DNA of 64,000 nucleotides from an uncultured Alphaproteobacteria bacterium (GTDB lineage: Bacteria; Pseudomonadota; Alphaproteobacteria; RF32; CAG-239). The stretch spans positions 983 through 64,982 of the forward strand of contig CALXRQ010000005.1 of the NCBI GenBank assembly GCA_944390895.1. The letters are read 5' to 3'. Each line of letters begins with the position of its first letter. The stretch's first letter is position 1. The notes under the pieces were generated by a model. The model was not told where the DNA came from, did no database searches, and saw only the letters and a program-made list of their open reading frames with translations. Position numbers and translations under genes: made by a program. Shown here piece after piece: positions 30,370 to 61,830 of the stretch.

Positions 30370-30445
30370 GGGCGCTTAGCTCAGCTGGAAGAGCATCTCG
30401 TTTACACCGAGAGGGTCGGGAGTTCGAACCTCTCAGCGCCCACCA
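30370..30445 (+). tRNA. tRNA-Val (anticodon UAC)
   Basis: Hand-folded cloverleaf: acceptor GGGCGCT/AGCGCCC, anticodon stem TCTCG/CGAGA with loop TTTACAC, T-arm GGGAG-TTCGAAC-CTCTC, encoded CCA. Confidence 0.9.
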
Positions 30446-30446
30446 T

Positions 30447-30477
30447 AAAAAGGTCTGCTTTATGCAGACTTTTTTTT
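30447..30477 (+). terminator. rho-independent terminator after tRNA-Val
   Basis: gtctgc / gcagac stem followed by T8. Confidence 0.8.
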
Positions 30478-30479
30478 AT

Positions 30480-30660
30480 GGCTGAGAGGTTCTAACTCAA
30501 AAGAGCTCGCTAAGTAAAAAACACCGTTGCTCCGGTGTTTTTTGTCTGCAAGAGCAACAACATCTTAATTTTGAGAAAAAAAACTAAATATTTTTGAAAC
30601 AAAATTTAGATGCTGTTGTACCAAATAAGCGATAGCTTATGTACCTCTCAGCATTCACCA
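30480..30660 (+). repeat. tRNA-Val-linked structured insert with 10-bp terminal inverted repeats derived from the tRNA 3' strand
   Basis: gctgagaggt (30481..30490) is the perfect reverse complement of acctctcagc (30643..30652). The right end repeats tRNA nt 30428..30445 with 4 changes. The internal core at 30509..30551 is shared with the tRNA-Ser units. Confidence 0.7.
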
Positions 30661-30864
30661 ATTAAAAAAGCCACCCTGTCACACCGGCCCCGAACCGATA
30701 TCCAAATCAAACATTGATTCCTTATCCCACCTGGATACAGGATCAAGTCCGCCATGACGGTAAAGACAATGTCATCCTGAACGAAGCGAAGGATCTCAGC
30801 TGCTTAATATCGTCATGCTGAGCACAACGAAACATCCCAGCCTTATTTATACGAAATCCAGATA

Positions 30865-43641: not shown

Positions 43642-44030
43642 AAAAGCCGCCATCAAAGGCGGCTTGCAGTGGCGGAGAGTACAGAATGGCTAAGTAAAAA
43701 ACTGACCAATGTCAGTTTTTTGTCTGCAACATCTCAGAAATGCCGGTAAGCAAGGAAAGCGACAGCAACCGCAGCGAGCCATGAATTTCTGAGGCGTAGT
43801 CCTGTCTCCAATACAAAAGCCGCCATCAAAGGCGGCTTGCAGTGGCGGAGAGTACAGAATGGCTAAGTAAAAAACTGACCAATGTCAGTTTTTTGTCTGC
43901 AACATCTCAGAAATGCCGGTAAGCAAGGAAAGCGACAGCAACCGCAGCGAGCCATGAATTTCTGAGGCATAGTCCTGTCTCCAATACAAAAGCCGCCATC
44001 AAAGGCGGCTTGCAGTGGCGGAGAGTACAG
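43642..44030 (-). repeat. 173-bp tandem repeat (2 full units + 43-nt partial unit merging into tRNA-Ser 3' end)
   Basis: Units 43642..43814 and 43815..43987 differ at one base (43796 G / 43969 A). Each starts with the tRNA terminator hairpin plus the antisense of the last 15 nt of tRNA-Ser. Confidence 0.9.
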
Positions 44031-44103
44031 GACTCGAACCTGTGCATCGGTATTCCCGATGACGGATTAGCAATCCGCTGCATTACCACTCTGCCAACTC
44101 TCC
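44016..44103 (-). tRNA. tRNA-Ser (anticodon GCU), class II with long variable arm
   Basis: Hand-folded: acceptor GGAGAGT/ACTCTCC, anticodon loop TTGCTAA, variable arm CATCGGGAATACCGATGC, T-arm ACAGG-TTCGAGT-CCTGT, encoded CCA. 88 nt. Confidence 0.9.
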
Positions 44104-61555: not shown

Positions 61556-61566
61556 ATTAGCCGAAC

Positions 61567-61772
61567 AATATTCTTCTTGGTCGGGGCAGCAGGATTGTAA
61601 TTCCCAATTCACCACTTTTCCCGGTATCTTTATCAAAACTGCTCCGAATTGGGCCCCTTTCGTTCAAGCTTGCTTCGCTCGGTAAACCTTACTCGCAACT
61701 TTCACCGACCCTAACGGTTCGCATCCTGACTTAAGTTTTAATAATATTCTTCTTGGTCGGGGCAGCAGGATT
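61567..61772 (-). repeat. 30-nt direct repeat (tRNA-Pro 3' 19 nt + 11 nt flank) bounding a 176-bp insert between tRNA-Pro and tRNA-Arg
   Basis: aatattcttcttggtcggggcagcaggatt occurs at 61567..61596 and 61743..61772. The second copy is the real tRNA-Pro 3' end. Confidence 0.85.
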
Positions 61773-61830
61773 CGAACCTACGACATCTTGCTCCCAAAGC
61801 AAGCGCTCTACCAGGCTGAGCTATGCCCCG
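61754..61830 (-). tRNA. tRNA-Pro (anticodon UGG)
   Basis: Hand-folded: acceptor CGGGGCA/TGCCCCG, anticodon stem CTTGC/GCAAG with loop TTTGGGA, T-arm GTAGG-TTCGAAT-CCTGC, encoded CCA. 77 nt. Confidence 0.9.

Follow-up and report, generated by a model that had tools for sequence, protein, structure and literature searches.

Short, structured and protein-less modules form a family that comes and goes between strains, usually beside tRNA genes, in uncultured gut Alphaproteobacteria. The family exists in several species and shows covariation in its structure, tRNA genes are its preferred neighbours and have their ends duplicated around it, and a 173-bp unit is polymorphic within one species. Two loci of the 64,000-nucleotide stretch of DNA analysed here (hereafter the window) carry it. 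The tandem cassettes at tRNA-Ser are the informative, still-dynamic locus, and the 215-bp insert downstream of tRNA-Val is a degenerate copy, fixed in its species, that looks like a fossil member.

The tRNA-Val and tRNA-Ser loci of the window

All the sequence features that a preliminary description had reported for the 215-bp insert at tRNA-Val were found in place (Table 1). The att-like direct repeat of the tRNA-Val 3' end that it had pointed out is genuine: the two copies (30428-30445 and 30643-30660) are identical at 15 of 18 positions, with mismatches that are all transitions (GCCC to ATTC), and the distal copy is the sole further match to the tRNA-Val end in the 64 kb at up to 3 mismatches (0.02 expected). 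The proposed 10-bp closing stem was also recovered as a perfect 10-nt inverted repeat (30481-30490 versus 30643-30652) that closes the Val module, but the antisense arm really extends over 18 nt. This arm is complementary to 30420-30437 at 17 of 18 positions in the window and at 18 of 18 in a sister lineage (L006), and a palindrome of ~79 nt (30420-30498) is centred on the tRNA-Val terminator.

Table 1. Features of the tRNA-Val and tRNA-Ser loci (positions in the window).
Feature	Position	Strand	Basis or remark
tRNA-Val(TAC), host gene	30370..30445	+	ARAGORN; Rfam tRNA 64.9 bits
Proximal direct-repeat copy, final 18 nt of tRNA-Val	30428-30445	+	
tRNA-Val terminator hairpin GTCTGC-tttat-GCAGAC, flanked by A and T runs	30446..30480		
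Antisense tRNA-Val T-arm and acceptor 3' strand, 18 nt, GCTGAGAGGTTCTAACTC	30481..30498	+	5' arm of closing stem
Module domain 1: P1, internal loop, P2	30505..30555	+	P1 and distal P2 covary, 12 copies
Module domain 2: long hairpin P3	30555..30618	+	
Spacer hairpin ATAAGC-gata-GCTTAT, module to distal repeat	30625..30640	+	minimum-free-energy structure
Distal direct repeat of tRNA-Val 3' end, ACCTCTCAGCattcACCA, then A-run	30643..30671	+	3' arm of closing stem
Two 173-bp cassettes adjoining tRNA-Ser	43642..43987	+	modules 43683-43799 and 43856-43972
tRNA-Ser(GCT), host of second locus	44016..44103	-	ARAGORN; Rfam

In domain 1 of the Val module, a helix additional to the core (P1, GCTC/GAGC, 30505-30508 / 30552-30555), which covaries across copies, is followed by the invariant internal loop GCTAAGT / GTCTGCAA and by the P2 hairpin AAAAAACACCG-ttgctc-CGGTGTTTTTT. 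The long hairpin of domain 2 had been described as imperfect and 17 bp in length; it is present, but its arms are really 28 nt long (30555-30582 / 30591-30618) and 79% complementary. Its outer stem and its ACATCTTAA/TTTAGATG stem are retained, and its interior (~30573-30600) is A/T-rich and devoid of the GNNA-capped inner hairpin that most other copies have. The whole Val element (185 nt) folds much more stably than shuffled sequences, with z = -7.7 for the + strand and -7.35 for the - strand. With the covariance model presented below, the Val copy scores 94.5 bits, the lowest value among full-length, unbroken copies except for its near-identical variant in L017 (89.8 bits), and the broken L006 copy scores 54.9 bits. 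The Val locus is invariant in five conspecific contigs save for 1-2 nt (A/T-rich interior). In L006, other sequence stands in place of the distal repeat and of the module's 3' half. Given the decay of the distal repeat, the loss of the P3 interior and the loss of the 3' half in the sister lineage, the Val element is probably no longer able to move.

At tRNA-Ser, a 173-bp tandem repeat is present in 2.2 copies (43642-44030). Each unit combines the terminator and a 15-nt piece of the tRNA-Ser 3' end, which is antisense on the + strand, with the module and a sense-like GTCCTGTCTCCAA. It corresponds to a 126-nt insert plus a target duplication of ~47 bp, in which the final 15 nt of the tRNA are duplicated together with the trailer, the terminator and TTTT. 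The direct repeat itself contains a 14-nt tRNA end and the terminator. Among strains with an identical ZIP transporter, the number of units is 0 in two contigs (L036 and L034), 1 in seven contigs and 2 in both L033 and the window, and the order at the empty site is tRNA-Ser, trailer, terminator and TTTTTTGTGATG. The unit is clean at 173 bp, and none of 11 conspecific contigs contains a larger island. A species whose ZIP protein is 86% identical (L053) has one unit with the same junctions, in which its own variant of the terminator is duplicated; no unit was found at tRNA-Ser in species with 90%, 83% and 78% ZIP identity. The window species and L053 have the GCCGCC...GGCGGC terminator in common, and it is absent from the closer L051, from which we infer that the terminator probably travels with the cassette. 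As the empty Ser alleles retain this cassette-type terminator, they may represent secondary losses. The 0/1/2 polymorphism is no proof of site-specific excision, because homologous recombination between the repeats would suffice to generate it.

Structure and distribution of the module

The core, GCTAAGTAAAAAAC-hairpin-TTTTTTGTCTGCAA, lies inside a three-helix module of 105-125 nt. The window contains exactly three matches to its pattern, at 30509, 43689 and 43862 (+ strand in each case), where chance would give 0, and the core stems differ between loci yet are complementary (caccg/cggtg at Val and ctgac/gtcag at Ser). The structure was obtained from an alignment and RNAalifold, and the curated structure was counted over 12 copies. 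P1 is formed by the 4 nt before GCTAAGT and the 4 nt after GTCTGCAA, with pairs that include GCTC/GAGC, GAAC/GTTC, GATG/CATC, GGTT/AACC, AAGC/GCTC and GATT/AATC. The internal loop is invariant across copies and reads, as RNA, GCUAAGU / GUCUGCAA. P2 is a hairpin with A6/T6 flanks, the distal 5 bp of which covary. P3 harbours a covarying outer stem and the ACATCTTAA/TTTAGATG stem, followed by GAGC-AA-GG-AAA-GC-tetraloop-GC-AA-CC-GCG-GC-GA; the inner tetraloop, present in most copies, is GAUA, GAAA, GCAA, GACA, GUAA or GGCA, and its stem covaries.

Canonical pairing was found in 92.3% of the 430 paired cells of the 12 copies, versus 32-46% in slid-partner controls, and changes on both sides of the pair in 21 of 37 pairs; the observed values were reached by 0 of 500 shuffles. 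The compensatory pattern noticed initially in the core stem is thus borne out, and compensatory changes preserve the helices across homologues, as in structured non-coding RNAs generally. Wobble counts are 23 G.U to 12 A.C, or 15 to 12 without one invariant pair, which does not single out either strand as the functional one. The invariant GCUAAG/UCUGC loop presumably resembles the 11-nt tetraloop receptor CCUAAG/UAUGG, a likeness that we treat as a lead only.

Exact-core scans covered species-representative genomes and metagenome contigs. Apart from three obvious chance matches, the copies came only from MAGs of gut and rumen origin that bear the names Alphaproteobacteria, 'uncultured proteobacterium' or Azospirillaceae/Azospirillum sp., and from human-gut contigs. 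Homologues of HydG encoded in the window are found in MAGs labelled 'Alphaproteobacteria bacterium' or 'Azospirillum sp.'. More divergent copies were collected by BLAST against virome contigs that turned out to be bacterial chromosome (L028 and L029) and by sampling orthologous loci (L053). In total, 8 or more related MAG lineages of gut and rumen Alphaproteobacteria have the module, and the 119-position covariance model gives E-values of 1e-18 to 1e-30 in several species. With at least 13 copies in related genomes, the proposal that the core hairpin covaries within a discrete family of elements is supported.

Rfam searches with four copies at the gathering score and at permissive E-values identified tRNAs and nothing else above noise, the core pattern had 0 matches in viral contigs (IMG/VR), BLAST against plasmids gave no match to the module, and literature searches found no description of such elements. 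The finding is thus real and not a described family, in line with the initial impression that no known element type was involved. Promoter scans revealed no promoter common to the module copies. Three BLAST matches named 'Bacteriophage sp.' were rejected as phages and correspond to bacterial chromosomal fragments with genes for RecX, MgsA, AsmA and a T6SS effector.

L028 and L029 are deposited under this name and have chromosomal genes. In L028 (1-5120) the module lies within T6SS VgrG3-like effector cassettes that form a 1.8-kb tandem duplication, and in L029 (60-1000) in one unit of a 255-nt tandem repeat.

Insertion at tRNA genes

The module adjoins the genes for tRNA-Val (window, L006, L017), tRNA-Ser (window, L010, L053), tRNA-Pro (L002), tRNA-His (L008, with two tandem units) and tRNA-Glu (L005, L011-20). 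In L001 its flanks hold nothing more than tRNA fragments, and L007, L028 and L029 contain no tRNA in the sequence around it. Five of nine independent loci are within 100 nt of a tRNA; as ~1.75% of the window is that close to one, the probability of this proportion is roughly 2e-7. The suspected association of the module with tRNA genes is borne out as a strong enrichment.

Read in the orientation of the tRNA, the linked loci consist of the tRNA, a terminator in most cases, an antisense or antisense-like fragment, the module in either orientation and the direct repeat. The Glu locus is a mirror image of this arrangement, its repeat being the 5' 32 nt of tRNA-Glu. At Val, Ser, Pro and His, the direct repeats begin at the boundary between the T-loop and the 3' strand of the T-stem. 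Across loci, the length of the direct repeat differs (24-28, about 47, 65 and about 75 nt). Hallmarks of integrative elements are thus present: an intact tRNA gene of which a part recurs, displaced and in direct orientation (Val, Ser, Pro, His and Glu), canonical sublocations within the tRNA (T-stem region, anticodon stem in L030, and 5' fragment at Glu) and, at tRNA-Ser, a precise empty site (L036 and L034 empty, the others with 1 or 2 units). A regenerated tRNA gene with a displaced fragment is the classical signature of tRNA integration (PMC4383910; PMC9897764), and the att-site classes of integrases in Islander comprise 1836 T-stem, 2083 anticodon and 159 5'-fragment sites (PMC4383910). 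The proximal and distal terminators are unlike at Val, at His and in L059, as would be expected if one terminator came with the element.

Upstream of tRNA-Glu, identity in the flanks is already about 98%, which leaves little room to see extra conservation of the module, and the 3' flank of the tRNA is hypervariable among otherwise ~98% identical contigs (L011, L013, L018, L019, L020). At this locus the module lies between a promoter and the tRNA, and it would therefore have to be co-transcribed or to supply a promoter; a promoter-like TTTAGA-18-TATTAT spans its 3' end. The islands downstream of tRNA-Glu differ and carry genes for a serine recombinase and DNA methyltransferases, the module being on the conserved 5' side.

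The terminal inverted repeats had been reported to match the neighbouring tRNA. This is the case at the linked loci (Val, Ser, Pro, His and Glu), but the L028 and L029 copies have neither a tRNA nor tRNA-derived arms. The further idea that such repeats are a property of the element did not hold up: the tRNA-derived repeats belong to the insertion site and not to the module, because unrelated or distantly related inserts have the same layout at other tRNAs and because a filled/empty pair in L029 shows the module alone as the inserted unit. The paralogous units of L029 with and without the module differ by a segment of ~103 nt that covers GCTAAGC through P3, and no long repeat accompanies it.

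The first of these other inserts is found at tRNA-Val of a sister species, which lacks the module described so far (type A) and has 1.9 tandem units of another insert, type B, in the same layout. A type-B unit also adjoins tRNA-Pro in L030 (4800-5161), with a 65-nt direct repeat that runs from the anticodon stem through the terminator and includes 37 nt of the tRNA. The module interrupts the partial copy of this tRNA at ~37/38. Read in reverse, type B has an A/T-flanked hairpin, a GC-GGCA-GC inner hairpin and the GACCGCAGCGAGTTT motif in common with type A, and it matches the type-A model at 22.8-26 bits (E 0.0025 to 5e-5, depending on the sequence searched). Type B thus appears to be a distant, marginally related relative of type A. 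Type D, in L059 (6199-6500), is an unrelated insert of ~125 nt at tRNA-Ser, followed by a 24-nt tRNA-end repeat. Finally, a 147-nt insert is present in the window itself between tRNA-Pro and tRNA-Arg (61566-61773), between 30-nt direct repeats made of the last 19 nt of tRNA-Pro plus 11 nt. It includes an antisense T-arm-like CAGGATGCGAACC, its layout is that of the Val and Ser cassettes, and the module covariance models R1 and R2 gave no match to it. Three of the four tRNA genes in a single 64-kb window thus carry cassettes that duplicate tRNA ends, with variation between strains of one gut species.

Some particulars of these loci are worth recording. In the sister species (L021 5700-6340; also L022-L027), tRNA-Val and its promoter are inverted relative to lon-hupB and hydG, and the DNA between tRNA-Val and lon-hupB / hydG is unrelated to the window. 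L030 harbours a perfect 20-nt palindrome, CCAAAGCAAGCTTGCTTTGG, made from the anticodon arm. The L059 insert consists in part of inverted T-arm fragments, and its proximal and distal terminators are the unlike ones mentioned above.

Origin of the cassettes

We favour, at about even chances, the interpretation of the 215 bp as a degenerate, fixed copy of a miniature cassette of the att-site type, protein-less and integrase-less, that carries the structured module. It is preferred because the repeats are those that integration into a tRNA gene classically leaves behind, and it recasts the earlier notion of an element 'borrowing' the ends of its target tRNA as one of tRNA-site cassettes with a structured cargo. 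The module of 105-125 nt would be the cargo and would act as a folded single strand, most likely RNA. A site-specific recombinase of the tyrosine-integrase type would insert the cassette in trans at the T-arm, anticodon-arm or D-arm. The tRNA-end copy (T-stem region through CCA, often with trailer and terminator) would complete the functional gene, and the second copy would be displaced to the far side of the insert, where at Val it would represent the attR-like original fragment. Recombination between their own direct repeats might later amplify, eliminate or homogenise the cassettes. The inverted tRNA fragment could plausibly stem from fold-back, or from recombination in inverse orientation, at the palindromic terminator or the T-arm, and selection may act on the folded module as a cis-acting or RNA cargo. 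No match to integrase, transposase or reverse transcriptase families was found among the 56 ORFs of the 64-kb window, and the cassettes are called non-autonomous for this reason.

Several observations count against the integrase model. The recombinase is hypothetical, since none was identified; circles of 173-250 bp are small recombinase substrates; the direct repeats exclude the T-loop, the expected crossover region, with identity beginning right after it; and a single module family occupies at least five different tRNAs, whereas integrases tend to have one target each. Both the occurrence of the module in either orientation and its repeat-less non-tRNA sites (L028, L029) fit an independently mobile module better than a pure integrase cargo. 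Such a module, MITE-, PATE- or SINE-like and non-autonomous, would be moved in trans by an HUH/single-stranded-DNA transposase or a reverse transcriptase and would prefer hairpin-rich sites just past terminators and tRNA genes, and the tRNA duplications would be by-products of repair (long staggered breaks, fold-back priming at the terminator or twin priming). We consider this rather unlikely overall, in spite of the ~103-nt module-only insertion in L029, the position of the module directly past a hairpin or terminator at most loci, the inconstant length of the direct repeats, the near-perfect palindrome on the tRNA-Val terminator loop, which is as would be left by fold-back synthesis, and a multi-helix covarying structure that suits a template or substrate recognized in single-stranded form. 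Indeed, the module has neither intrinsic terminal inverted repeats nor a constant target-site duplication, its two hairpins are dissimilar, in contrast to those at the left and right ends of IS200/IS605, neither the window nor the neighbourhoods inspected contain a gene for a reverse transcriptase or an HUH protein, the repeats begin at the tRNA sublocations used by integrases, and unrelated inserts have the same layout. A MITE in the strict sense was rejected: the arms are tRNA-derived and different at each locus, and the L029 pair lacks both terminal inverted repeats and a fixed target duplication. Group I, group II, retron and IS200-type readings were discarded as well, their defining features being absent; with respect to retrons, group II introns and other reverse-transcriptase elements, the neighbouring genes are housekeeping genes and no intron model matched.

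The module could also be a bona fide family of small structured RNA genes, trans-acting or tRNA-related, in which the arms form a selected closing helix or processing signal and the cassettes multiply only passively, through unequal crossing-over. Strong covariation in six helices, the invariant nucleotides of the internal loop with its presumed likeness to a tetraloop receptor, and the GNNA-type capping loop speak for this possibility, as do the closure of the Val module by its arms and the location of the Glu module between promoter and tRNA. It is nevertheless unlikely: the module has no conserved promoter upstream, no flanks are shared between loci, a terminator of the same direction immediately precedes many copies, and no Rfam family matches. 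Moreover, copies decay (window Val, L006, second unit of L008), strains with 0 units exist, so the module is dispensable within a species, and the closing stem is weak or absent at Ser and in L028 and L029. A tRNA-like minihelix with a free NCCA end was rejected, as pairing of the 5' arm extends into the CCA at the His unit and other loci have weak arms or none. We find it similarly doubtful that the cassettes form a protein-less mobile class of their own, in which an RNA or single-stranded-DNA module homes to any tRNA, copies the end of its target and always regenerates the gene; the antisense arm would then be guide-like or primer-binding-like and not a by-product of an att site. That nothing specific is involved, only shared bidirectional terminators and chance, or inert scars of deleted large islands, is effectively refuted. 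P2 does resemble a bidirectional intrinsic terminator (A-run, stem, T-run), and tRNA genes of the clade are island hotspots, as seen at the 3' flank of tRNA-Glu. Against this stand the exact 14+14-nt flanks, expected 0 times by chance, the covariation over 12 copies, the E-values of the covariance model across species, the identical junctions in two species, and the clean 173-bp unit in the absence of a larger island.

The cassettes can be set beside several known systems. tRNA-targeting integrative elements and their integrase-less derivatives, such as cis-mobilisable elements (CIMEs) and the tandem att arrays at ssrA of Dehalococcoides, are alike in the regenerated tRNA with a displaced direct fragment, in repeats that start at the T-stem or anticodon (rarely at the 5' end), in tandem accretion and in site-restoring loss (PMC4383910, PMC9897764, PMC5704250, PMC3146451). 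In contrast, the present cassettes are protein-less and, at 173-250 bp, more than 10 times smaller than any described island or CIME; one cargo family occupies at least five tRNAs in both orientations, an inverted tRNA fragment lies beside the direct one, and no integrase was identified. MITEs and structured repeats (Correia/NEMIS, ERIC, RUP, Rickettsia RPE, REP/REPIN) are similarly small, non-coding, multi-copy and intergenic, with strong folding, frequent proximity to terminators and presence/absence polymorphism among strains. Unlike them, the module has no intrinsic terminal inverted repeats or fixed short target duplication, is no simple palindrome, having two dissimilar hairpin domains and an invariant internal loop, and is specifically associated with tRNA ends. 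Class C group II introns, IS200/IS605 with PATEs, and integron attC cassettes resemble it in their insertion beside terminator hairpins, in the conservation of structure over sequence and in the lack of target duplication, as at the non-tRNA site. However, the module lacks the GUGYG start, domain V and Rfam intron match of group II introns; no reverse transcriptase, TnpA or IntI is encoded nearby, its hairpins are not similar to left and right ends, and it has no attC R/L boxes. The pdif (Xer) modules of Acinetobacter plasmids are small, have inverted recombination sites on both sides, occur in either orientation and are moved by a host-encoded recombinase. They differ from the cassettes in that the sites here are tRNA-derived rather than dif-like, the setting is chromosomal and there are no cargo genes.

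Tools that search for genomic islands require an integrase and a minimum length, and cassettes of 170-250 bp are therefore invisible to them. Should a recombinase be confirmed, the cassettes would be the smallest integrative units known and would illustrate how a single cargo family can naturally be directed to many tRNAs. Were the module an RNA, an uncultured lineage of the human gut would have a structured RNA class that is new. In addition, the cassette repeats break assemblies, several contigs ending at them, and create mis-annotations of tRNA fragments.

Additional small repeats are present near the Val locus. Past the distal repeat (30672-30850), the window contains motifs such as gtcatcctgaacgaagcgaaggatct and ctggatacaggatcaagtccgccatgacgg, which seem to resemble widespread intergenic repeat motifs of other bacteria. 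At ~30866, two conspecific contigs (L043/L044) share an insertion of 141 nt in which two hairpins resemble each other (CCCCCAGTAAACTGGGGG and CCCCGAGTAAACTCGGGG). This insertion is absent from the window and three other conspecific contigs and looks like another small mobile repeat. Lastly, the conspecific assemblies L046-L050 begin a few hundred bases upstream of hydG, and since these breaks fall at or near the tRNA-Val cassette, they fit with repeats disrupting assembly.
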